Source of the DNA: Rubripirellula sp.
GTDB lineage: Bacteria > Planctomycetota > Planctomycetia > Pirellulales > Pirellulaceae
Length of the DNA stretch: 64,000 bases
NCBI GenBank assembly: GCA_965216875.1
Contig: OZ244207.1
Coordinates: forward strand, 7,840,001 to 7,904,000
Reading direction: 5' to 3'
In this document: positions 28,965-60,903 of the stretch, in pieces
Numbering within the stretch: position 1 is the stretch's first letter
How the letters are laid out: each line of letters opens with the position of its first letter
Position numbers and translations under genes: made by a program
Notes under the pieces: generated by a model
Database searches by the model: none
What the model was told of the DNA's origin: nothing
What the model saw: only the letters and a program-made list of their open reading frames with translations

Positions 28965-29852
28965 CTAGGCGACAAATGCCGTTTTTACCGAACGGATCGC
29001 GTGCAGAAATTGGTCCACGGATTCCGTTCTTTCTTCGACCTTGGGTTGGATCATGTTCATGATCGCTCGGGCCAGTCTCGGATCGATATTGGGACAACGC
29101 TCGATCAAATCGGTCGGCGGCGAAGTGTCGTGGTGGAGTGCGGCTCGGCCGTTGAGGATTTCACCCTGCCAGGGATGCTCGAAGGCACAGAGACAGTAGA
29201 ACGTGACGCCGAGTGAAAAGATGTCGACCCGTTTGTCGGTCGCCCGCCGACGCACGATTTCGGGCGACATGTACAGCGGCGTGCCCGTTCGGTTCCCAGG
29301 TGCCATGAATGGGGAGGTGGCCGGAACGGTTAGCCCAAAGTCGATCAGTTTGACGCCCGTGGTCTCGGGCAAGCAAATGAAGTTTCGCGGGCAAATATCG
29401 CGATGGATGAAGTCTTTGGTGTGGACGTACTTGAGCGCCTCGGCCATATCGCGGATCAGCATCATGCGTTTGCCCTGAACGTGGTGTTCCTGCTTTTTCA
29501 CCACGATGTTCTGCATGCTTGGCCCTGCGATGTACTCCATCACAATGACCGGCTGGCCTTTGGTCGATACGCCAACTTCGTAGGTTTCGACGATTTTCGG
29601 ATGATCCATCATCATCGCGATTTCGCCCTCGGTCGGCTTTCCGAGCCCTTTGAACCGACCTTCAAACGCTTCGACCTTTTCGATGTCGAGCACTTTGACA
29701 CCGACGAGTTTGTCGTTGTTTTCACGGTCTTTGGCGACAAAAAAGTGCGCCATCGTGCCCGTCACGCCCGTCCTTTGGCGAGTAAAACGCGTCTCCACCT
29801 CGATCTTGGCGCTCGAGCGGAGTTTCGATTTAAGAGAATCGAGAAAGCCCAT
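28965..29852 (-). CDS. Cytoplasmic Ser/Thr protein kinase
   Basis: VGVKVL, HPKIV, MEYIAG, HRDICPRN, IDFGL, GTPLYMSPE, DIFSLG; no TM or sensor domain. Confidence 0.9.
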   Translation of the reverse strand: MGFLDSLKSKLRSSAKIEVETRFTRQRTGVTGTMAHFFVAKDRENNDKLVGVKVLDIEKVEAFEGRFKGLGKPTEGEIAMMMDHPKIVETYEVGVSTKGQPVIVMEYIAGPSMQNIVVKKQEHHVQGKRMMLIRDMAEALKYVHTKDFIHRDICPRNFICLPETTGVKLIDFGLTVPATSPFMAPGNRTGTPLYMSPEIVRRRATDKRVDIFSLGVTFYCLCAFEHPWQGEILNGRAALHHDTSPPTDLIERCPNIDPRLARAIMNMIQPKVEERTESVDQFLHAIRSVKTAFVA

Positions 29853-50517: not shown

Positions 50518-50601
50518 CTGTCATGCGGAGCATGACCTACGAAGACTGTCATGCGGAGCATGACCTACGAAGACTGTCATGCGGAGCATGACGTACGAAG
50601 A
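50518..50601 (-). repeat. Three tandem 28-bp REP-like units (family B)
   Basis: CTGTCATGCGGAGCATGACCTACGAAGA at 50518, 50546 and 50574 (one mismatch in the last). The reverse strand reads GTAG followed by the GTCATGC-TCC-GCATGAC hairpin. Confidence 0.9.
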
Positions 50602-50637: not shown

Positions 50638-53484
50638 CTACTCTTTGGTTTCACCAAACAGGACGCCAGGGACGTAGATCGCGACTCCGATCAGGACCGA
50701 GAGCATCCAGGGTTGCAATGCCGAACCGACTCCCGGAACTCCAAAGTCTTGGCCGAACAAGATGATGACGGTGGCGACGACCGCGAACGGTGTCATCCGC
50801 CAGCCAGAGACGAACGCAGACATGACAAGCAGCAAACCGGCGATGCCGATCGACCATTTGCGCCCCGAGTTGCTGTCGAGTTCTGCTGCCGAATCTTGCA
50901 GTGCCGTCACTTCACCCTGATCGATTGAACCCGTTTGAGCGGCTGATTCGGCAATCGATTTGACTTGATCAAGCAACCCTGTCTGTTGGGCCCAGATGGC
51001 GAAGATCGCGAGCAAGATACAACCGGCAAGCAGTCGGGTTTGGCCGCCCAGAGCGAATCGGATGATCGAAAACCGTTTCGGTGCCGACTTGTACTTGCCA
51101 CTTCGCGCGTCGGCAAGCATCGCCTTCATTCGCTGCCGTTTTGCTTCGGCCGCAGCATCCACGTTTTCGCTCGGGGCCGTTTGCGGCTTGGCAACTTCCA
51201 TAATCGCTGCGGCCATTTGCCAGCCACGGTCGCGGGCTTCGTCTGCACTGAGTCCTTCGCTTTGCAAGCCGCGTTGTTCGATCTTTGCGAGCCGCTTGTG
51301 ATCGCGAGCCTGTTTGTTGGCGAGTGATTTTTCGGAAAGGCTTTCGCAAACCTTGTCACGCAATGTTCGGCGCCGCGCTGACGCGGAAAGTGCGGGGTCG
51401 CTTTTGAGTTGTTGCCGAATCGTCTGCAACGCTTCATAGCCAAACAGCGTTTCATACAACCCTTGCCACGACTTGCCACCATAACGTGCGGCAAACAGTC
51501 GAACGCCGTCTTCATCGGCTCCTTCGATACGAAGGTTTCGCAAGAACCGTTCTGCGTCGTCGATGACGGCGGCAGCCTTTTTCCGAGTTGGGGCGACGAG
51601 GCCAAAGTGGAAAGCGGCTCCTGCAGCACAGCCCAGCAGCGCGCCGACGATCACACCGACAGCGGCACCTGACGCGAAACTGACCAACACCGCAACAAGG
51701 CAACCAACCACGCCGACGGCATAGTCAAACCATGAAAGCGAGCCAAACCAACGTCGCAGTTCATTGACGATGGCACTGCGGCCACCGCCGGCACCAAGCG
51801 CAAGCGCAGTCACGATTGCTGAGACGAACATTGCCGGGCCAAACAACAGCCAGCCCAATCCGATAAAGGGCATCACCAGCGTCAGCAGAGCACAAACGGT
51901 GGCGAAACAGGCAAACACCGGGCTGACCAATTTGGCCAATCGTGTGGCGGTTTGAAAACGCCGAGCGATCTCTTCCCATTGATCGGCTTGATCGGTGGAC
52001 GGCGAAAACGTACCCTCGCCACTGATGCCGAGGTACGCTTCCATGTCGTGAATCATTTCGGCGACCGACAGGTATCGGTCTTCAGGCCGCTTGGCCATCG
52101 ATCGGTCAACGATGGCTTGCAACGCTTCGGGGATCCGAGCATTGATCGTGTTCATCTGCGGCGGTGGCTGGTGCGCATGCTGCTCGAGCACTTCAGAGAC
52201 GACGCTGCCGTCAAAAGGAGGCTGTCCGGTCAGCATGTAAAACAGGGTGCAGCCAAGCGAGTAAATGTCGGCGCGGTGATCCACACCCGCAGCGTCAATG
52301 CTCTGTTCCGGGGCCATGTAGGCAGGTGTGCCGACGGCGGTGCCCTGCATCGTGACTTGCGTGCCACTCTCGACTCCGCTGATCGAAGAGGCGCCGACGT
52401 CCGATTCGGGGTCAATTTGATCAGGGATTTTGATGAGGCCGAGATCTGCGACTTTCACGACCCCTTCGTCACTGAGCAACAGGTTTGCGGGCTTGATGTC
52501 GCGATGCACCATGCCACTGCGATGGGCGTACTGCAGCCCCCGGGCGGCTTGCAACGTGTAGCCGACTGCGATTCTTGGTTCGATCGCACCCTTCTCTTGT
52601 ACGACATCGCTCAAGGGGCCACCGCGCACCCATTCCATTGAAAAGAAGTGTTTCCCTTCGTCTTCACCAAAGTCGTAAATCTGAACGACGTTGTGATGAG
52701 TCAACTGGGCCGCTGCATAAGCTTCGCGTGTGAATCGTGCCAACGACGACGCGTTGCCGGCGAGTCGACCACGGATCGTTTTGAGTGCGACAAGGCGATC
52801 GAGCGAGACTTGTTTGGCTTCGTAGACCGCACCCATGGCTCCCCGTCCCAACAGGCGAAGAATGCGGTAGCCGCCCAGTCGATCGGGGACCTCTCCGTCG
52901 TCGGTCGATCCGGTTTGCTTTGACTTGGACGATCCACCCGCCGAGACGACGGGCGATTTCGATGCCTGTGATTTTCCAGGTTTGACAACGACGCTCTCGT
53001 AGTCGTTGGCGGTGGCATCGATTGTCGATTCGACATTGCCCATCGTTCGAGCCGCGTTGCCTGTGGCGGTTTCAATGGTCGCTTGGATATTGGTTTGATC
53101 GCTTGTGGCGTCGACCGGGCCATCCATTGTTTCTTCGACGGTCGCGCCAACATCATCGGCGGCCGTCATCGATGGAAGTCCCGCATCGTGACTCTCTTCG
53201 CCCGCCATCGTTGCATCAATGCTTCCGCCACCGCCAACGGTTGCTGCCACTTTCGACGCTGGGGCCTTTGCAGGTTTGGATTCTTGTTTGGCGGAAGCGG
53301 CTTCCTGTTTGACGTTCGATTTCGCCGAGGGCTTTAGTTTTCCGACGGCGACTTTGGGCGGATCGTCATCGGAGACCTTGAGGCGAAACTGTTTGTGGCA
53401 ATGTTTGCACTTGGGGCGGTAGCTTCCTGGTTTCGGCTGACCGAGCGACAGTACCGATTCACATTCGGGGCACTTGATTCGCAT
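50638..53484 (-). CDS. Ser/Thr kinase with N-terminal zinc ribbon and multiple TM helices
   Basis: CPEC...CKHC, Thr-rich linker, LGRGAMGAVY, VALK, FTREA, HRDIKPAN, ADLGL, GTPAYMAPE; about 8 hydrophobic segments in the C-terminal half. Confidence 0.93.
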   Translation of the reverse strand: MRIKCPECESVLSLGQPKPGSYRPKCKHCHKQFRLKVSDDDPPKVAVGKLKPSAKSNVKQEAASAKQESKPAKAPASKVAATVGGGGSIDATMAGEESHDAGLPSMTAADDVGATVEETMDGPVDATSDQTNIQATIETATGNAARTMGNVESTIDATANDYESVVVKPGKSQASKSPVVSAGGSSKSKQTGSTDDGEVPDRLGGYRILRLLGRGAMGAVYEAKQVSLDRLVALKTIRGRLAGNASSLARFTREAYAAAQLTHHNVVQIYDFGEDEGKHFFSMEWVRGGPLSDVVQEKGAIEPRIAVGYTLQAARGLQYAHRSGMVHRDIKPANLLLSDEGVVKVADLGLIKIPDQIDPESDVGASSISGVESGTQVTMQGTAVGTPAYMAPEQSIDAAGVDHRADIYSLGCTLFYMLTGQPPFDGSVVSEVLEQHAHQPPPQMNTINARIPEALQAIVDRSMAKRPEDRYLSVAEMIHDMEAYLGISGEGTFSPSTDQADQWEEIARRFQTATRLAKLVSPVFACFATVCALLTLVMPFIGLGWLLFGPAMFVSAIVTALALGAGGGRSAIVNELRRWFGSLSWFDYAVGVVGCLVAVLVSFASGAAVGVIVGALLGCAAGAAFHFGLVAPTRKKAAAVIDDAERFLRNLRIEGADEDGVRLFAARYGGKSWQGLYETLFGYEALQTIRQQLKSDPALSASARRRTLRDKVCESLSEKSLANKQARDHKRLAKIEQRGLQSEGLSADEARDRGWQMAAAIMEVAKPQTAPSENVDAAAEAKRQRMKAMLADARSGKYKSAPKRFSIIRFALGGQTRLLAGCILLAIFAIWAQQTGLLDQVKSIAESAAQTGSIDQGEVTALQDSAAELDSNSGRKWSIGIAGLLLVMSAFVSGWRMTPFAVVATVIILFGQDFGVPGVGSALQPWMLSVLIGVAIYVPGVLFGETKE

Positions 53485-53596
53485 CTAACTTTCTCAATGA
53501 TGACGCTTTGGATTCGCTTGAGGTCGACTACCGCACAACAGAAACCTCGAGAGAAATGATACTAGTCGGGAATACGGGATGCACGTTTGCGTGGGT

Positions 53597-54877
53597 TCAG
53601 CTCCCACCGAACCATTGCCTCACTTTTCCTTTCCAAGCACCCCGAGTGGTGGGGGGCGTGGCGCCGGAAGGCAATCGGTCGGTATCGGCAAGACGGATCA
53701 GATGTTCTCCAATTCTGCCGCCAGCTTGACCTGGGAATTGAGTTTCAATGGCTTGAAGTTCCGCAGCGATGCGACCAGCCCAGGGATCGTCCCACCCGAC
53801 GGCTGCGACTGCCACCAATTTGATCAACGCTTGAATGTCGGTTTGGATTGAGGTCGCCAACGCGTCCGGTTCTGGTAATTCGCTCACCTCTCGTATCCAG
53901 CGATTGGCTCCTTCCAGATTGCAGATCGCATCCAAGATTTGAGGTTTGCCGTCATGACTGATCAACACGTTTCCGGCATGCAGTCCACCGTGGGTTGCAC
54001 CGCTGTCGTGTGCGGACTGCAGCGCGAAAGCGACCGACGCGATCGTGCGCAGTTGAGTGGATCGAGGGATCGATTCATCGCCGCGATGCCACGGTTGTGC
54101 GAAGACCCAGGGACGGACGATTGCCAAGCGACGGTTTTGAATTGCGGCCACCGTGGGCGCAATCCAATGTCGATTGCGAACCTTGGATGCCGTCTCGCAC
54201 GCGTCGAGAAGCCTCTGTTGTTGTTCGCCGCTGATCTGCGCTGGTAACTCGATGACCTTGAGCGCGAGTTTGTCGCCGCGGTCAACTTCGCGACCGCGAA
54301 AGAGCCAACGCCCAGGACTGCATGCGATCGATTCCTCGGGTACGAACCATTCCGGAAGCTCGACCGGAAACGCAATCTCCATTTTGCCGTCGTGAATTTC
54401 GGGCATCGGAGCAACGGAAAACTCGGCGGAGCCTTCGGTTGAATCATCGCTCACACGGCGCGAGTCGCCGAGTCCTATGATGGCCGATGCCATTGCGACT
54501 GGCGGTACGATGTCAAGCTGAACCAGTTCACCGATCGCGTCCCCATATTTCGGAAAGCGTTTGACATAGTCGTCCACGCTGACCGGTTGCCCAAGTTCCT
54601 GGGCGACGCAGATTTCGGCATCGATCAAATCGAGCACGTGCGATTCGCTGCCAAGTTCCGAGAATTCGTCGACATAGTCTTCGACGGTCGTCTTGTCTCC
54701 GAGACGTCGGCGATGCATCAGGTCGATACATGCGACATCGACCAGTCGGTCATTGGGTACCTTGTGACCAGAGAGCAGGTCACTCAATTTGGCGGTTCGA
54801 TTGTGTTGGCGTTGGCTACGGACCCACTGAATCAAATCATCGATAGAAATTCGGCTTGGGTCCGCGATGTGATCCAT
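53597..54877 (-). CDS. Pseudokinase (degenerate Hanks-type kinase fold) with ECF-associated-kinase-like N-terminal repeats
   Basis: Duplicated N-terminal unit (G....VEDYVDEF / GQPVSVDDYVKRFP); LALKVI retained; HGGLHAGN replaces HRDLKPxN; ILDAI replaces DFG; no GxGxxG loop and no GTxxYMxPE. Starts 1 bp after the ECF stop. Confidence 0.72.
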   Translation of the reverse strand: MDHIADPSRISIDDLIQWVRSQRQHNRTAKLSDLLSGHKVPNDRLVDVACIDLMHRRRLGDKTTVEDYVDEFSELGSESHVLDLIDAEICVAQELGQPVSVDDYVKRFPKYGDAIGELVQLDIVPPVAMASAIIGLGDSRRVSDDSTEGSAEFSVAPMPEIHDGKMEIAFPVELPEWFVPEESIACSPGRWLFRGREVDRGDKLALKVIELPAQISGEQQQRLLDACETASKVRNRHWIAPTVAAIQNRRLAIVRPWVFAQPWHRGDESIPRSTQLRTIASVAFALQSAHDSGATHGGLHAGNVLISHDGKPQILDAICNLEGANRWIREVSELPEPDALATSIQTDIQALIKLVAVAAVGWDDPWAGRIAAELQAIETQFPGQAGGRIGEHLIRLADTDRLPSGATPPTTRGAWKGKVRQWFGGS

Positions 54878-54878
54878 C

Positions 54879-55499
54879 TCAGATGTCCTCTTCGCCCAAA
54901 CCAATGTCACGACGGACTCGGTCGAGTGCACGTTTGACTCGCATTCGCGCGGCATCGGGAGTCAAATCGAGCGCTTCGCCGATTTCTGCCCAATCGCGGT
55001 TTTCCAGCATTAGGTCGATTGCCTTGGCGTCTTTTTCGTTCAATTGCGAACGGATTTTTGTCAGCACTTCGCGGCGAAGCGCAATCTGGCTCGGCGTGTG
55101 TTGTTGCTGGGCGACCGTCATGTCTTCAACAGGCGTTGCTTCGTTGCGTCGAAAGTCACGACATTGTCGAGCAAGCGTGCGAAACGTATCGAGAACCTGG
55201 TTGTCGATCGCGCGCATGATGTACGCCAACACGTCATCGGGGCTGACGGTGTCATCGCCGTAGCGTTTGGCCAAGTCCGCCATCACATCGTTACAGATGT
55301 CCATCGACTCGGCTTGCCCCGTCAAACCGTATTGCCGCAAACGCGTTCTCGCTCGCCGTCGCAATTGGTCGCCGAAACGACGCCAAACGACCGCCAACGG
55401 CTGGCTCGATTCGGCCGACTCGCCGATGTTTGCCGAGCTGTCGTCGTTGCCCGAGGGCGACGCTGGTACGGGGGATTCCGGCTTCATGGGTTGACTCAC
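54879..55499 (-). CDS. ECF-type sigma factor (kinase-associated type)
   Basis: LRRRARTRL..ESMDICNDV, LAYIMRAIDNQVLDTFR, TPSQIA, and sigma4 WAEIGEALDLTPDAARMRVKRAL; AAGGA SD before GTG. Confidence 0.85.
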   Translation of the reverse strand: MSQPMKPESPVPASPSGNDDSSANIGESAESSQPLAVVWRRFGDQLRRRARTRLRQYGLTGQAESMDICNDVMADLAKRYGDDTVSPDDVLAYIMRAIDNQVLDTFRTLARQCRDFRRNEATPVEDMTVAQQQHTPSQIALRREVLTKIRSQLNEKDAKAIDLMLENRDWAEIGEALDLTPDAARMRVKRALDRVRRDIGLGEEDI

Positions 55500-55791
55500 T
55501 ACTGTCCTTGGCCGATGCGTCTATGCGGGTGGAAAAGAAAAGGGCGCCAAACGCACCACTCGCACAAACACAGTCCGCCAAACCGTTGGGCGAGATCTGG
55601 CGAAGAAACGAACAGCAAACCAGAAACAGCCAACGGGCTTCCCCCCAGTATGACTGATTCGTCGGAGATGTCCCGCTTTTTGAGGCACGATTCGCGACGC
55701 GGAGAGGCGGCATTCAAAAGCATGAGCCGCAACGCGATAACGTGCGGTTTTGGACAAAAGGCTGGATGACAAACCCTACCCAAGCCGCGAA

Positions 55792-58700
55792 TCACTCTGC
55801 GGCAGGTTCTTCAGCTTCGTCTTCCGATACCACGTCGTCTGCTTCTTCGCCCGCTTCTTCACCCTCGGTTTCTGATTTTGGCGACCCGGTCAATTGACGT
55901 TTCGCGTCGCCCATCAGTCCGAGCCCCTCGTGGATGCAGACACCTGCGACGACCACCGTCATCGCAACGGCAAGGTATCGCACGATGCCGGGCAAGAAGT
56001 AGTAGCATGCGACACCACACGCCAACGCAGCACACGCGAAACCGTATTGCATCACGCCCTTCATTTGAGTGTTTCGTGATTGAACACGAACGCTCTTGTT
56101 GATGGCGCTACGAGCGGATTCATTGGCCAGCTCTCGCATCGCCGACAGATTGCTGTGCTTTTCGGGGGCCTCGGATCGAGGCACCAAAGGTGCGTTGGGA
56201 TCTGCCGCCGGTTGAGGCTCAGCGACTTCTTCTTGCGGAGCTTCGAGGCTTTGCGAGAGGGGCTGGCTGAGTGGAGCGGAGGTCGACAGCGAGACGGTCT
56301 CTGGCTTGTCCTCGCCCTCTTCGCCAGGCTCGCCTTGAACGCGTTGCAGCAAACGGTTCATGTAGGCTTCGATCGAATCGTCATCCGCACCTTCGGGTAC
56401 TGACGGCAGGTCCCCAACCTCTGCTGGCAAACTGGCCTCCGCTGGCAAACTGGCCTCTTCCGGCAAACCGGCTTCTGCTGGCAAACCGGCTTCCGGCACA
56501 GGCGATTGCTCAAAGTCTTGGCTGTCGGACAGTTCCGAATTGTCAAACTGTTGCGTCGATTCGTAGTCCGAATCCTGTTCGAACTCCGTGCCCTCTTCTT
56601 GTTCGAACTGAGCAGTCGGTTCGTGGGCGTATTCGTCTTCGGTAAAGCTACCGCCTGAATCGAATCCGCCGTCTTGGTCGATCGATTCACTGCTGTACCC
56701 GTCCGACTCATTGGTCCATGAGCTCGAGTAGGCTTCTTCGGGGTGTTCTTGGTCCCAGCCCTGCGAGTCTTCGATGTCTTCGGCACCTTCGTCCATGACG
56801 TAGGTGTTCTCTGACGGTTGCTCTTGGTCGCGATCGGCGGCCAAGTCTTGGATCAACATGCTTGCGAGCGAACCATCGGCGACTTGGTCTTCCGATTCGG
56901 AACTCTCGTGCTGACCATCGACCGCTTGCTCGCCCTCATGCTCAGCAGTCCCGTATTCATCAGAGGCCTCCTGTTCTGGCGACGATCCCCACGCGCTGGC
57001 TTCATCTTGTGGAAGGTCTTCTGCCGCTGTCCAAGGTGACGTGACGCCATGTTCTTGTTCGTCCGCCGGCTCGCTCGCCCAAGAGTTTTCATCGCTTGAG
57101 GGTTCGATCGCCTCAGGTCCATCGTCCGAGCCCCAAGCCGATTCTTGAACGGGTGGTTGCTCAGCTTGCGACTCGGAGTCCCATGCCGATGAGGACGACC
57201 ATGGGTTCTCTGAATCCGAGTTTTCAGCAGCGGAGGGTTCGGGAGCATCGTCCCAATTCGCAGTGTGCTCGACCGAATTGGCGATCTCGTCGCTCGGCGT
57301 TTCGGAAGGTTCGCTCCACACCGACGACGATTCGCCCCAGGGGTTCTCGTCGCCACTCGCTTCGGGTTGCTCGCCGCCCCAAGCCGAATCGGAATCGGCC
57401 TCTGGAAGTGCTGCCTCGGGTTCGGGGCTGGCCGCCGTTTGAGGTTCGGTTTCAGGCGTGGCGGTGTCTTGGTACGCCTCGTCGATTGCCTCAGGTTGCG
57501 AAGCATCTTCGACTGGTTGCGAAGCATGTTGCTCGGCAGGTGCCTCGGCCATTTGGTAGGTCGGCCAGGCCTCGTCGTGTTCGTCCGTGACTTCGGACGC
57601 GGACGAATCCGCAAGCACGATGTCATCGCCGCCAGTTGGCTGTTGAGCGTCGTGACTGGTCGCGTCGTGACTGGTCCCGTCCTGGGCGGTGTCATCCTGG
57701 GTGGCGGCGTTGGACGCCGCGGCGGCTTCGACTTCATCAAGCCGGTTGCGAGCAGCATCGTATTCGCGTTTCATCTCTGCGAGCTGCTGATTCGCACAAT
57801 CGAGTTCTTCGCGGAGCGACAGCCAGGCTTCGTCGCTTGGGCGGTCGTCGATTTGCTTTTGGATCTCGTCACGTTCTTGGCTGATTTGTTCGCGAAGCGA
57901 TTGGATTTCGTCTCGTTCCGCGGCAATGTCGTCCCGTTCCGAGGTGAGCGATTCTTTGTGTTGCTCGAGCTCGTCACGTTCGGATTTCAAAGCGTCTCGC
58001 TGAGCGGCCAACTCATTTCGTTCGGCGACCAGCTCGTCACGTTCGCTGGCAAGATCATCGCGCTGAGCCGAGATCTCGTCTCGCGTCGTCACGGCCTGTT
58101 CACGCTGTGCGGTCGCTTCGTCACGCTCGGCGAGCACCAGGTCTTGTCGTGCGGAGAGTTCGTCGCGTTCTGCCGATAGCTCATCACGCTGGGACGAAAG
58201 TTCGTCGCGCTCGGCGGTCAGTTCATCTCGTTCCGAAGCAATCTCATCGCGCTGCGCAGTGATCTCGTCGCGCTGCGCAGTGACCTCGTCACGCTGTGCA
58301 GTGATCTCATCACGTTCCGTTGCGAGCTCGTCACGCTGTGTGGTGATCTCATCACGCTGTTTTGCGATTTCATCGCGTTCGCCGGCGATTTCGTCGCGTT
58401 GGCGAGTGACCTCTTCAAGTTCAGCACCAATTCGTTGAAGTTCCGCCAGCGTGTCTTCGTGCTGAGATTGAAGGTGATCGCGTTGTTGGTTGAGGTGATC
58501 GCGTTGTTCGGTCACTTCGTCGCGCTGAGAAACGAAATCATCGCGTTGGCCCGAAAGGTCGTCCAGTCGCGATTGCGCTTCATCACGCTGCTCGGTGACT
58601 TGGTTGAGTTCGTCGGCGATCCGATCACGTTGCTCGGCCAAGTCACCGTGTTGCGATTCCAGATCGCTTTGCTTCGAGACAAGTGATTCGACGTTGGCAG

Positions 58701-60903
58701 CAAGGTCATCGCATTTAGCGACCAATTCGTCGCACTTTTCAGCGAGCTCGTTTCGCTCGGCAGCGAGTCGGTCGCGGTGCGAGGCGATCCCGTCGCGTTC
58801 GGCGGCGATCTCGTCTCGATGAGCGGCGAACTCATCTCGCTGGGCGGCGAATTCGTCTCGCTGTGAAAGAATCTCGTTCCGCTGCGTCGCCAGTTCATCA
58901 CGTTGCGACGCGATCTCGTCTCGCTCGTTGGCCAACGCGTCACGTTGGTGGGTCAATTCATCGTGAAGACCGGACAATTCTTGGTGTTGTGCCGCCAATT
59001 CATCGCGATAGGTGGCGATTTCATCACGCTCGTTTGCGATCTGATCACGCTCAGATGCCATTTCGTCACGCTGGGTGTTGGCCGCGTCACGCTCTTGGGC
59101 GAACTGATCGCGCTCGCTGCGCATCTGTTCGCATTGTTCACGCATCTCCTCGAGGCGTCCGGTGAGCGTTTCGTTTTGCTCACGCATTTGCGACAGGTCG
59201 TTGTTCGCCTGAGCGAGGTTGACCGAGAGCTCATCCACACTTTGACGCAGCTGCTCGGCTTCTTGCTCCCAGCTTGCGCGAGCAAGGTCGCCTTGCGATT
59301 CGCCTTGCGAAACCGCGGCTTCCAAACTTTCGACGTTGCGGCAGGCCGTTTCATAGTCGGCTCGCAATTGTTGCGATTCATGGCGCGCGTGATCGACGGC
59401 CTGTTGCAGCTGTTCCACTTCATGCCGAAGTTGGTCGGCGACCGCTTCACTGTCCGCAAGTCGTTGTTGCTGATCTTGCAGCTCGTCGCTTTGCGTCGTG
59501 CGCAGCGAATCCATTTCGTTGAGCAGGTCTTCTGCTCGTTGTTGCGCTTGTTGGCGTTGGGCTTCACTCTCGGCTTTTGCATCAATCGCGCGATCACGAG
59601 CCGCTTCAAGCTCGGTGCGCAGTCGTTGATGCTCCTCGCGCTGACTCGTTTCTTCTGACTGCAAACGAGTTTGTTGGGTCGACAAATCATCGATCTGTTG
59701 ATTCAGGACGACAAACTGCTCACGCATCCGTTGGACCGCGTCCGACGCCGCATGGGCTTGCTTTTGCGACTGCTGCAGTTGGTGCGTCGCTTGGTCGAGC
59801 TGGACGCGGTAGGCGCTTTCCTGCTGTTGGAATTGCGCTTCAAGCGTTCGCAGTTCAGCTTCGCGCCGTTCGAAGCCTTGCTGGCGCGCGATGTTGGCGT
59901 CGCGAAGTTGCAGAAGCTCTTGTTGCTTTTGCGTGATCTCTTCGTGCAATTGTACGGCTGCAGATTCGGCCGACTGGACCTGAGCTTCGCGTCGATAGAG
60001 GTGCTCGGCTCGCGCCCACAATTCGGATTCGCGACCACGCAGGTTGGCTTCACGGTCATCGCACCGAGACTCGCGGCGATCGCATTCGGCTTGGCGTGTT
60101 CGCCATTGATCGATTTCACGTCGCAGCCGTTCACGCCATGCCGCTTCGCTCTCTTGGCCACCATAGTTTGGGGCACCAGGTGGTTGCGAACCGATTGGCG
60201 ATTGACCCCCACGCGAAGCAGGGCCACCCAATGAAGCAGCTGGTCCACCCAAAGTAGGACCACCCAACGAGTTTGCACCGCTTAGCGGTGAGGAGGAGAG
60301 TGACTCGAGATCGGCGAGTGCCGACTCGAGCGCTGGCAGCGAACCGAGCTGGGAGAAGGTTGGCGCCGAATCAAGGGCACCATGGCCACCAGCTGGTGAC
60401 GAATCGAACGCCGTTTGCGCCGAGTGATGGGCCGGCATTGGATCGACTGTTGGGCTGGAGACGGAAAGGAGTTCGAACCGGTAAGAGCCCATGCGCAGCA
60501 CGTCGCCCACGTGAAGCGTCGTTTCGGTCGTCTCGGTCTCGTTGATTTCGATGGGGACCGAATAGGCACGAACCTTAATCTGGTCGGCTTCGCGAATCAG
60601 CACGGCATGCATCGGACGCAGCGCTTCGTCGGTCAGACGGATGGAGCAGCCTTCGGCACTGCCGAAGGTGTACCGATTTCCGGTCAGCCGGAGGCGGCGA
60701 ACGGGTGCACCGGGCCTGAGGACGCGAAACTCGAGGGCACTGCTGCGGGTGCCAGCAGAGAGTCCCGCGGAAAAGTCGCCCGAATGGTTCGGCAGCGTGG
60801 AGGTAGGCGAAAAACTAGAGTCAGGATTCATGGTGTTTGGACCGGTTTGCACGTTCATTCCAGCGGCTTGGCCAAGGTTCGCGTGATTCATACTCACCGT
60901 CAC
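55792..60903 (-). CDS. Giant FHA-domain / coiled-coil / acidic low-complexity protein with C-terminal TM hairpin
   Basis: FHA-like fold (YTFGSAEGCSIRL..RPMHAVL..IN..LHVGDVLRMG), about 800 aa of coiled coil, about 450 aa of acidic linker and two C-terminal TM helices. Start may be 60903, 60897 or 60891. Confidence 0.88.
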   Translation of the reverse strand: MTVSMNHANLGQAAGMNVQTGPNTMNPDSSFSPTSTLPNHSGDFSAGLSAGTRSSALEFRVLRPGAPVRRLRLTGNRYTFGSAEGCSIRLTDEALRPMHAVLIREADQIKVRAYSVPIEINETETTETTLHVGDVLRMGSYRFELLSVSSPTVDPMPAHHSAQTAFDSSPAGGHGALDSAPTFSQLGSLPALESALADLESLSSSPLSGANSLGGPTLGGPAASLGGPASRGGQSPIGSQPPGAPNYGGQESEAAWRERLRREIDQWRTRQAECDRRESRCDDREANLRGRESELWARAEHLYRREAQVQSAESAAVQLHEEITQKQQELLQLRDANIARQQGFERREAELRTLEAQFQQQESAYRVQLDQATHQLQQSQKQAHAASDAVQRMREQFVVLNQQIDDLSTQQTRLQSEETSQREEHQRLRTELEAARDRAIDAKAESEAQRQQAQQRAEDLLNEMDSLRTTQSDELQDQQQRLADSEAVADQLRHEVEQLQQAVDHARHESQQLRADYETACRNVESLEAAVSQGESQGDLARASWEQEAEQLRQSVDELSVNLAQANNDLSQMREQNETLTGRLEEMREQCEQMRSERDQFAQERDAANTQRDEMASERDQIANERDEIATYRDELAAQHQELSGLHDELTHQRDALANERDEIASQRDELATQRNEILSQRDEFAAQRDEFAAHRDEIAAERDGIASHRDRLAAERNELAEKCDELVAKCDDLAANVESLVSKQSDLESQHGDLAEQRDRIADELNQVTEQRDEAQSRLDDLSGQRDDFVSQRDEVTEQRDHLNQQRDHLQSQHEDTLAELQRIGAELEEVTRQRDEIAGERDEIAKQRDEITTQRDELATERDEITAQRDEVTAQRDEITAQRDEIASERDELTAERDELSSQRDELSAERDELSARQDLVLAERDEATAQREQAVTTRDEISAQRDDLASERDELVAERNELAAQRDALKSERDELEQHKESLTSERDDIAAERDEIQSLREQISQERDEIQKQIDDRPSDEAWLSLREELDCANQQLAEMKREYDAARNRLDEVEAAAASNAATQDDTAQDGTSHDATSHDAQQPTGGDDIVLADSSASEVTDEHDEAWPTYQMAEAPAEQHASQPVEDASQPEAIDEAYQDTATPETEPQTAASPEPEAALPEADSDSAWGGEQPEASGDENPWGESSSVWSEPSETPSDEIANSVEHTANWDDAPEPSAAENSDSENPWSSSSAWDSESQAEQPPVQESAWGSDDGPEAIEPSSDENSWASEPADEQEHGVTSPWTAAEDLPQDEASAWGSSPEQEASDEYGTAEHEGEQAVDGQHESSESEDQVADGSLASMLIQDLAADRDQEQPSENTYVMDEGAEDIEDSQGWDQEHPEEAYSSSWTNESDGYSSESIDQDGGFDSGGSFTEDEYAHEPTAQFEQEEGTEFEQDSDYESTQQFDNSELSDSQDFEQSPVPEAGLPAEAGLPEEASLPAEASLPAEVGDLPSVPEGADDDSIEAYMNRLLQRVQGEPGEEGEDKPETVSLSTSAPLSQPLSQSLEAPQEEVAEPQPAADPNAPLVPRSEAPEKHSNLSAMRELANESARSAINKSVRVQSRNTQMKGVMQYGFACAALACGVACYYFLPGIVRYLAVAMTVVVAGVCIHEGLGLMGDAKRQLTGSPKSETEGEEAGEEADDVVSEDEAEEPAAE
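56419..56497. repeat. In-frame 18-bp tandem repeat (EA[GS]LP[AE] x4)
   Basis: GGCAAAC(T/C)GGC recurs every 18 bp. Confidence 0.85.
57856..59115 (-). repeat. Sixty consecutive 7-aa (21-bp) degenerate repeats, consensus [EQ]RDE[IL]xx
   Basis: From ERDQFAQ to ERDEIQK is 1260 nt (420 aa) with no break in phase. Confidence 0.9.

Follow-up and report, generated by a model that had tools for sequence, protein, structure and literature searches.

The window analysed here is a stretch of 64,000 nucleotides from Rubripirellula sp. (contig OZ244207.1), in which three genes follow one another on the minus strand: an extracytoplasmic function (ECF) sigma factor, a protein kinase homolog lacking the catalytic Asp (the pseudokinase), and a membrane-bound Ser/Thr kinase. 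The ECF gene (54879..55499) encodes 206 amino acids (aa) from a GTG start. A single base (54878) separates its stop codon from the ATG at 54877 of the pseudokinase gene, an intact open reading frame (ORF) of 426 aa (53597..54877), and translation of the two is likely coupled, judging from this one-base spacing. The membrane kinase gene (50638..53484; 948 aa) follows after a gap of 112 bp. These positions agree with an earlier annotation made from the DNA letters alone (the sequence-only reading), which had proposed that a dead kinase gates the ECF while its neighbor supplies phosphate in trans. Our analysis reveals that the middle gene is, by its sequence, a conserved pseudokinase and not a decaying copy, and a complex model places the sigma factor on a helical domain at its N-terminus that had been overlooked.

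The middle ORF gave a Pfam Pkinase match at E 0.02 only, under the cut-off, and carries the motifs HGGLHAGN, DAI and ALK, with no GTPxYMxPE. In an AlphaFold2 model (predicted local distance difference test, pLDDT, of 80) the 426-aa protein consists of two domains with a disordered linker between them. The C-terminal one, residues ~167-402 (53672..54379, minus strand; delimited by fold search and motif alignment), shows a bilobal protein kinase fold. Foldseek matched it to Stk1 with an E of ~6e-9 and returned at least 500 matches at E ≤ 0.001, all of which, among the matches listed, were kinases or pseudokinases. Structural comparison with VIA yielded Nek7 (Z 17.1; root mean square deviation, rmsd, 3.1; 202 aligned residues), PknB (Z 16.7; 3.3; 213) and PknS (Z 16.6; 4.0; 208). 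The kinase-like character ascribed to the ORF is thus borne out for this domain.

Motifs were counted in an alignment of 100 sequences of 300-520 aa, which includes the query and three doubtful rows; representatives at 50% identity comprised 101 proteins at E ≤ 1e-10 (~100 clusters). Here and throughout, counts rest on sequences that are related and not independent. The loss of the catalytic Asp (position 298) extends to the entire family (0/100), the position being occupied by Gly (52), Ala (20), Ser (10), Asn (6) or His (5). Several other kinase residues are kept, namely the β3 Lys K207 (97/100, as the sequence-only reading had observed for this copy), the αC Glu E228 (90/100), the catalytic-loop residues H296 (96/100) and N303 (99/100), the DFG Asp D316 (97/100) and the αF Asp D347 (99/100). 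A His occurs at position 300 in 69/100 and the gatekeeper position is Arg in 98/100. The claim that DFG is lost holds for its Phe-Gly, whereas the Asp remains; likewise, the Gly loop is degenerate (A-x-[GS]-P-G-R) but not deleted. The Arg of the RD motif is gone, and so is the P+1/APE segment, in line with the earlier description: DFG Asp and αF Asp lie 32 residues apart, compared to 44 in the kinases of the nearest outside (sister) ECFs described below. The conserved W191, which we considered as a substitute for the β2 Val filling the ATP pocket, was rejected, as the alignment puts L192 there.

We determined the ratio of nonsynonymous to synonymous substitution rates (dN/dS) from 28 locus pairs of at least 62% identity that are themselves not independent. 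Values ranged over 0.11-0.33 in the dead domain (27 pairs), 0.02-0.22 in the N-terminal domain (28 pairs) and 0.01-0.15 in the ECF. At least one residue of the catalytic triad is thus missing across a conserved family, which speaks against the lone decaying copy that the sequence-only reading had named as its alternative. More eroded middle genes with the N-terminal domain kept were seen at loci L117, L119-L123, L136 and L137; in the five rows inspected (L117, L119, L120, L121 and L123) most kinase motifs are lost, which suggests that the dead domain is still decaying on these branches. As a separate observation, two further kinases of this genome that adjoin an ECF (G000:C1:5195570-5198962 and 5419962-5423054) have altered catalytic loops, HHDIK and HGDLK, in which the Asp is kept. 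An apparent ECF-pseudokinase fusion at L158 was dismissed, since it turned out to be a run of Ns from an assembly gap, translated as X.

The ECF itself consists of sigma2 and sigma4 only, the architecture of ECFs. It scores 45.5 bits against TIGR02937, above the cut-off of 42.9, and its Pfam sigma2 and sigma4 matches are weak, both under the cut-off. The ECFs whose partner is a dead kinase group into a single clade of 63 rows (support 100/99 in the ECF tree; two identical pairs included, frameshifted rows excluded), which is marked by RRRARTRLRQ in the sigma2.1 helix, ESMD in sigma2.2 and [TS]PS in the linker. ESMD aligns with the DAED position of other ECFs, as had been noted, but two acidic residues (E and D) are retained. 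The Ser of ESMD had been put forward as an EcfP-like phosphosite. In EcfP, the phosphosite is the second Thr of STTA at position 3 (PMC8999054); the Ser here is at position 2 and position 3 is Met in 63/63 clade rows, so the two sites are not equivalent. Thr or Ser is found at position 52 in 63/63 rows, S65 in 62/63 and [ST]135-P-S137 in 63/63. We regard T52 at the center of the modeled interface, S65 of ESMD, and T135/S137 of the linker as candidate phosphosites, the linker sites by analogy with Thr106 of EcfK.

Residues 1-124 of the pseudokinase (54506..54877, minus strand) form a separate helical domain in the AlphaFold2 model (pLDDT 88) with two LxDLxxx-type helical repeats. This N-domain had no Pfam match in 68/72 rows, the other four giving single weak unrelated matches, and no Foldseek match at E ≤ 0.001; no anti-sigma ASD domain was among the matches listed. 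In fold comparisons it matches generic helical repeats best (Z 9.4, rmsd 3.9, 119 aligned), an Atlas search yielded unnamed planctomycete clusters only, at 0.90, and it has neither a zinc motif nor a clear match to a solved anti-sigma domain. Five residues (L82, D83, D86, A87 and C90) are invariant in 56/56 dead-kinase rows and in four gene fusions (4/4; see below).

A complex model of ECF and pseudokinase scored 0.73, while the best of three controls, with no cousin ECF among them, scored 0.00. The score mark applied is reached by 116/157 solved and 2/215 mismatched pairs, rates that are approximate with our own alignments; the runs agreed in at least 26% of contacts, with a partner pLDDT of at least 56. 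The ECF interaction check proposed in the sequence-only reading thus came out positive in the model, and its idea of an ECF-binding pseudokinase stands in altered form, as all confident contacts come from the N-domain and none from the kinase-like domain. The main contacts are made by D83, D86, C50 and C90 with R48, R49, R51, T52 and R55 of the ECF sigma2.1 helix, and lesser ones lie at 87-99 and 147-152. Within the clade, the interface residues vary little or not at all (C50 is kept in 47/56), and interface columns are more conserved (0.65) than the remaining N-domain (0.49). D86 is found in 56/56 dead-kinase rows but 1/12 active-kinase sisters, R49 in 63/63 clade rows but 1/13 sister ECFs; in the sisters, D86, R49, T52 and R55 are mostly replaced by other residues, and the combination of D86 with R49 and R55 is almost specific to the ECF clade. 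Region sigma2.1 is part of the core-binding surface. The model supports binding of the N-domain to the sigma2.1 helix, and the dead kinase has apparently been kept because its front end would bind the sigma factor. Probably, the N-domain is what gives a kinase its sigma specificity. In this genome, with 120 TIGR02937 and 105 Pkinase matches, 6/9 N-domain kinases follow an ECF compared to 23/90 other kinases, which is no more than suggestive, as paralogs are not independent.

Two overlapping sets, which we do not sum, underlie the comparative analysis: 301 genomes of the window's family, and 59 loci found by an alignment-based scan. The pseudokinase family was present in 30/301 genomes and 10/126 genera. 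Those of its records that carry a name belong mostly to Pirellulaceae (Rubripirellula, Rhodopirellula, Stieleria, Roseiconus). A further 300 genomes sampled from the whole phylum gave no match to the ECF clade at E ≤ 1e-32. The ECF lies directly upstream of the pseudokinase in 56 of 58 assessable loci, so the synteny, on whose conservation the sequence-only reading had made its proposal depend, is conserved. At L098 (5923-7293) and L112 (2587-4110) the pseudokinase lies apart from the ECF, behind another gene, which in L112 is an ORF with a histidine-kinase-like motif as judged by eye.

The sister ECFs carry DSMD, DSVD, DSQD and, in one case, ESMD. In 12 of their 13 loci the gene after the ECF encodes this same N-domain joined to a kinase with an intact HRD motif, the thirteenth being cut by a contig end. 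The closest sister, L139 (G032:C38:477-4510), has an ECF with RRRARTRL and ESMD, and its cognate N-domain kinase is still active by its motifs. At one further ECF locus (L145) no N-domain kinase gene was seen. A profile of the dead domain scored the cognate active kinases of the sisters at 38-59 bits (one gapped row at 22) and the membrane-kinase family at 24-33. Judging from this layout and these scores, the pseudokinase derives from the ECF's own former kinase. A duplication of the neighboring membrane kinase as its source is disfavored, since the profile prefers the sister cognate kinases; the direct comparison of the dead-domain and neighboring-kinase profiles aligned 35 columns only.

Four genomes show a deletion of the dead domain and the zinc ribbon that leaves the N-domain fused straight onto the kinase and membrane tail of the third gene. 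These fusions form one nested clade (support 100/95 in the ECF tree and 100 in the kinase tree, a FastTree reconstruction that excluded three presumed duplicate loci and rows with fewer than 600 aligned residues) and thus represent one derived event. The fused layout has stayed stable along long branches, and with an N-domain followed by an active kinase it restores the ancestral arrangement. Locus L034 (7839-8858) holds a second dead domain with a kinase copy, without N-domain or ECF. Second membrane kinase copies behind a dead-domain ORF that lacks the N-domain were seen there and at L169 (221-664, at a contig end); the two genomes belong to the same genus.

The third gene is a canonical zinc-ribbon membrane kinase, as had been described, with a Pkinase score of 166.5 bits, intact GRGAMG, ALK, HRDIKPAN, DLG and GTPAYMAPE motifs, a CPEC...CKHC zinc ribbon and eight hydrophobic segments (about 8 predicted transmembrane (TM) helices from hydropathy). 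Among the 59 loci, this kinase lies within 600 bp downstream in 31, 0.7 or 4.2 kb away in two, and is fused in four; 16 loci are without it, and six are cut by contig ends. The three-gene circuit of the sequence-only reading is thus the commonest layout, though not universal. Somewhere in the genome, the membrane kinase was present in 33/33 sampled genomes with the ECF clade, and in 10/10 tested genomes whose locus had no adjacent kinase. Probably, this separate kinase supplies the phosphate signal in trans.

A promoter-like motif, TGTTCG-N16-CGCC (55589..55614, minus strand), whose spacer is N17 in most relatives, precedes the ECF start by about 90 nt. It scores 21.6, compared to a maximum of 13.6 in 400 random 450-mers, and motifs above 13.6 were found in 37/59 loci of the ECF clade, including loci outside the training of the matrix, but in 0/13 sister ECFs. 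The motif is missing in most loci with an unlinked kinase, and it was not found upstream of six unlinked kinases, one duplicate copy or ten kinases of ECF-less genomes (best 13.5). It looks like an autoregulatory ECF-type promoter, and we infer that this ECF would read it. Sigma-70 promoter and terminator scans stayed at chance level. In a genome-wide scan the top match reached 25.7 versus 21.5-23.9 in column-shuffled controls, and 6 of 40 matches were intergenic and upstream of a gene versus 0-4 in the controls; because these values are close to each other, we claim no regulon. The second-best match in the genome (score 25.2) lies within the window at 28968..28993 (minus strand), where it overlaps the 3' end of a kinase ORF upstream of a 282-aa gene (28585-27737, minus strand) that encodes a membrane-anchored, coiled-coil-like protein without a Pfam match. 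Orthologs of this gene have an upstream motif above 13.6 in 8/18 genomes with the ECF and in 1/11 without it (13.9), which makes it a lead as a candidate target. Two genes with N-termini similar to the 282-aa protein are also among the top motif matches in this genome. A PIN/TRAM gene was rejected as a target, its upstream motif being kept in 0/29.

Directly upstream of the ECF, a gene for a 1703-aa protein with FHA and coiled-coil regions and 21-bp repeats (55792-60903, minus strand) keeps its position in both same-genus genomes. FHA domains bind phospho-Thr, and a link of this protein to the ECF circuit is therefore possible. Just past the membrane kinase stop, at 50518-50601, a 28-bp unit occurs in three tandem copies; the unit is a member of a dispersed repeat family that has many copies in the genome, with at least 80 BLAST matches within the first 1.75 Mb.

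The locus resembles the group ECF43 systems EcfP/PknT of Vibrio parahaemolyticus and EcfK/PknS of Xanthomonas citri in that a membrane Hanks kinase is co-encoded, a classical anti-sigma gene is missing, and conserved Ser/Thr residues are found in sigma2 and the linker. PknS, too, has an N-terminal helical region, of 81 residues and with an unknown role (PMC13147305). Unlike in the ECF43 pairs, the kinase at position +1 is dead here and the active kinase belongs to a separate, older family; moreover, ECF43 members have STTA, a non-charged motif with the phospho-Thr at position 3, while the window ECF has ESMD with Met at that position. Within the same phylum, ECF59, ECF60, ECF61, ECF62 and ECF217 have a kinase in their neighborhood, according to the group descriptions at hand (PMC7826278). 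These describe a TC in the -35 element for ECF59, a divergent sigma2 for ECF60, and for ECF61 a kinase with at least five TM helices two genes away, given as position -2. Distance and TM count fit our locus, where the kinase is the second gene downstream and the direction hence apparently opposite; as the ECF61 description may overlap with it, the linkage of ECF and kinase may already be on record. A kinase at +1, the feature of ECF59, ECF62 and ECF217, is present at the sister ECFs, whereas the +1 gene here is kinase-derived, without catalytic Asp and under the Pfam cut-off. An intervening pseudokinase or a sigma-binding N-domain is not mentioned in these group descriptions.

A pseudokinase scaffold with a shortened activation segment that works with an active kinase is also found in MviN/PknB/FhaA of Mycobacterium tuberculosis (family ActPs3). 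From what is described there, ActPs3 is a membrane-bound family that retains none of the three triad residues and controls the synthesis of the cell wall (PMC12599244), while the present family, a soluble one tied to a sigma factor, retains Lys and the DFG Asp. ActPs1-3, GLW and DLHK are described as lacking the VAIK Lys in all members (10.1101/2025.01.12.632604), a residue kept here in 97/100, and CP1 pseudokinases as linked to a COG3899 ATPase domain (PMC12599244), whereas the 426-aa protein consists of N-domain and kinase-like domain only. Going by these descriptions, the pseudokinase fits none of six of the seven catalogued families (ActPs1-3, GLW, DLHK and CP1; the seventh, DYD, was left out of the comparison), and the words 'sigma' and 'Planctomyc' are absent from the main texts of both catalogs. 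RshA/SigH and RseA/SigE, acted on by PknB, offer a likeness by proposal, as there a soluble protein holds the ECF and a Ser/Thr kinase releases it (as outlined in PMC8999054); RshA and RseA are ZAS-domain proteins, whereas the N-domain has no zinc motif and derives from the ECF's former kinase. In its proposed working, the locus would combine kinase control of the EcfP/PknT type with an anti-sigma factor that a kinase releases. In the literature retrieved on pseudokinases with ECFs, planctomycetes or anti-sigma factors, on ECF60, ECF61 and ECF62, and in the part of PMC11032199 that was accessible, we found no such circuit; Jogler 2012, Wiegand 2020, Iyer 2020 and the supplement of the kinase-atlas preprint may describe the ECF group or the middle gene.

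With this information at hand, we propose a split ECF-kinase switch, to which we assign a probability of about one half. The computed results, i.e. fold, Asp loss, purifying selection, synteny, ancestry, fusion and motif, frame its history: the ancestor would have been an ordinary planctomycete pair, with an ECF followed by one protein that united a helical N-domain with an active kinase, and the cognate kinase of this clade would have lost its catalytic Asp and activation segment, yet been retained. As modeled, the N-domain would grip the basic sigma2.1 helix through the invariant Asp83 and Asp86. We infer that this complex keeps the ECF off RNA polymerase, with the N-domain in the role of an anti-sigma factor or a tether. 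The dead kinase domain would offer a surface for non-catalytic coupling, probably to the membrane kinase with the zinc ribbon, our presumed partner, which upon a signal may phosphorylate either the ECF (T52, S65 or T135/S137 being the presumptive sites) or the pseudokinase. Phosphorylation would free and/or activate the sigma factor, and the released ECF would transcribe from TGTTCG-N16/17-CGCC promoters, including that of its own operon. A bolder version, which we advance tentatively, is that the N-domain represents an uncatalogued sigma-binding class (anti-sigma or docking) in many planctomycete ECF-cognate kinases, of which this locus would be a case with a pseudokinase anti-sigma factor, a recruited membrane kinase and release by T52 phosphorylation.

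Several observations weigh against the split switch. ECF and pseudokinase are unlinked in two genomes. The kinase is not beside the pair in 16 of the 59 loci and is found in 57 of the 268 genomes that lack the ECF clade, and thus has other jobs. The fusion arose once, and for a deletion that joins two neighbors in frame to become fixed, no prior functional coupling would be needed; the fusion also demonstrates that the dead domain is dispensable. The ECF may need no phosphorylation, judging from the two acidic residues of ESMD and the Met at the EcfP phosphosite. Finally, the complex model gives the dead domain no confident contact and does not separate an inhibitor from a dock that presents a substrate. 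Such a dock is the essence of a pure adaptor, in which the N-domain brings the ECF to the membrane kinase and the ECF, like EcfP and EcfK, is inactive until phosphorylated. The presence of the N-domain on active cognate kinases and in the fusion would fit, as would S65, which is shared by 13/13 sisters, near-invariant in the clade and outside the confident interface; phosphorylation on Ser has been suggested for ECF59 and ECF60 (PMC8103513), and linker Thr106 of EcfK matters in activation (PMC13147305). Three points make us doubt this explanation: ESMD retains its acidic residues, the pair is kept at loci with an unlinked kinase, and the modeled interface extends over sigma2.1 and reaches the beginning of sigma4. 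Anti-sigma domains similarly wedge between sigma2 and sigma4.

The tighter linkage of the pseudokinase to the ECF (56/58) than to the kinase (31/59) would also suit a self-contained anti-sigma sensor, in which the dead domain would take up Mg-nucleotide or some other ligand and set the ECF free by allostery, the kinase being just co-transcribed. β3 Lys, αC Glu, Asn and DFG Asp hold ATP and Mg in kinases, and all four are kept here (97, 90, 99 and 97 of 100). We consider a sensor unlikely, as the degenerate Gly loop and the gatekeeper Arg may block the pocket, the dead domain became dispensable once the kinase was fused in, and the distant members L117, L119, L120, L121 and L123 lost the nucleotide-holding residues; bulky residues are described as blocking the pocket of MviN (PMC12599244). 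Conservation of the same Lys, Glu, Asn and Asp, together with His at position 300 in 69/100, could mean that the domain is not dead but modifies the ECF itself by weak or atypical phosphotransfer or by another nucleotidyl transfer. HER3 and JAK2 JH2 show low-level phosphotransfer without a catalytic base. Lacking the catalytic Asp and the P+1/APE segment, and with a shortened C-lobe (32 versus 44 residues), the domain is a very improbable enzyme. A functionless, decaying remnant is largely refuted: the pseudokinase does diverge faster than the ECF (29-54% versus about 55-85% identity to homologs) and is frameshifted in some loci, but ~100 clusters at 50% identity, dN/dS well below 1 and invariant residues contradict it, and the same assemblies are frameshifted in ECF and kinase as well, which points to sequencing error.

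The signaling between an ECF and a kinase proposed here is of a known kind; new are the pseudokinase in the cognate slot and the role in ECF binding that the model suggests for an uncatalogued N-domain. Planctomycetes have very many ECF-kinase pairs, whose mechanism the reviews consulted treat as untested and possibly unlike that of EcfP, and the question thus reaches beyond this locus. Here, it becomes testable with two soluble proteins, because a domain, a small interface (D83/D86 versus R48/R49/R51/T52), three candidate phosphosites and a candidate promoter can be named, and orthologs occur in cultured strains of Rhodopirellula baltica, Stieleria species and Roseiconus. The locus also adds a conserved family of bacterial Ser/Thr pseudokinases, and in the published texts accessible to us we found no other pseudokinase tied to a sigma factor. 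If true, the bolder version would describe a three-part, pseudokinase-gated sigma switch whose history, from an active pair through a dead pair with an outside kinase to a re-fusion, would be readable from living genomes.

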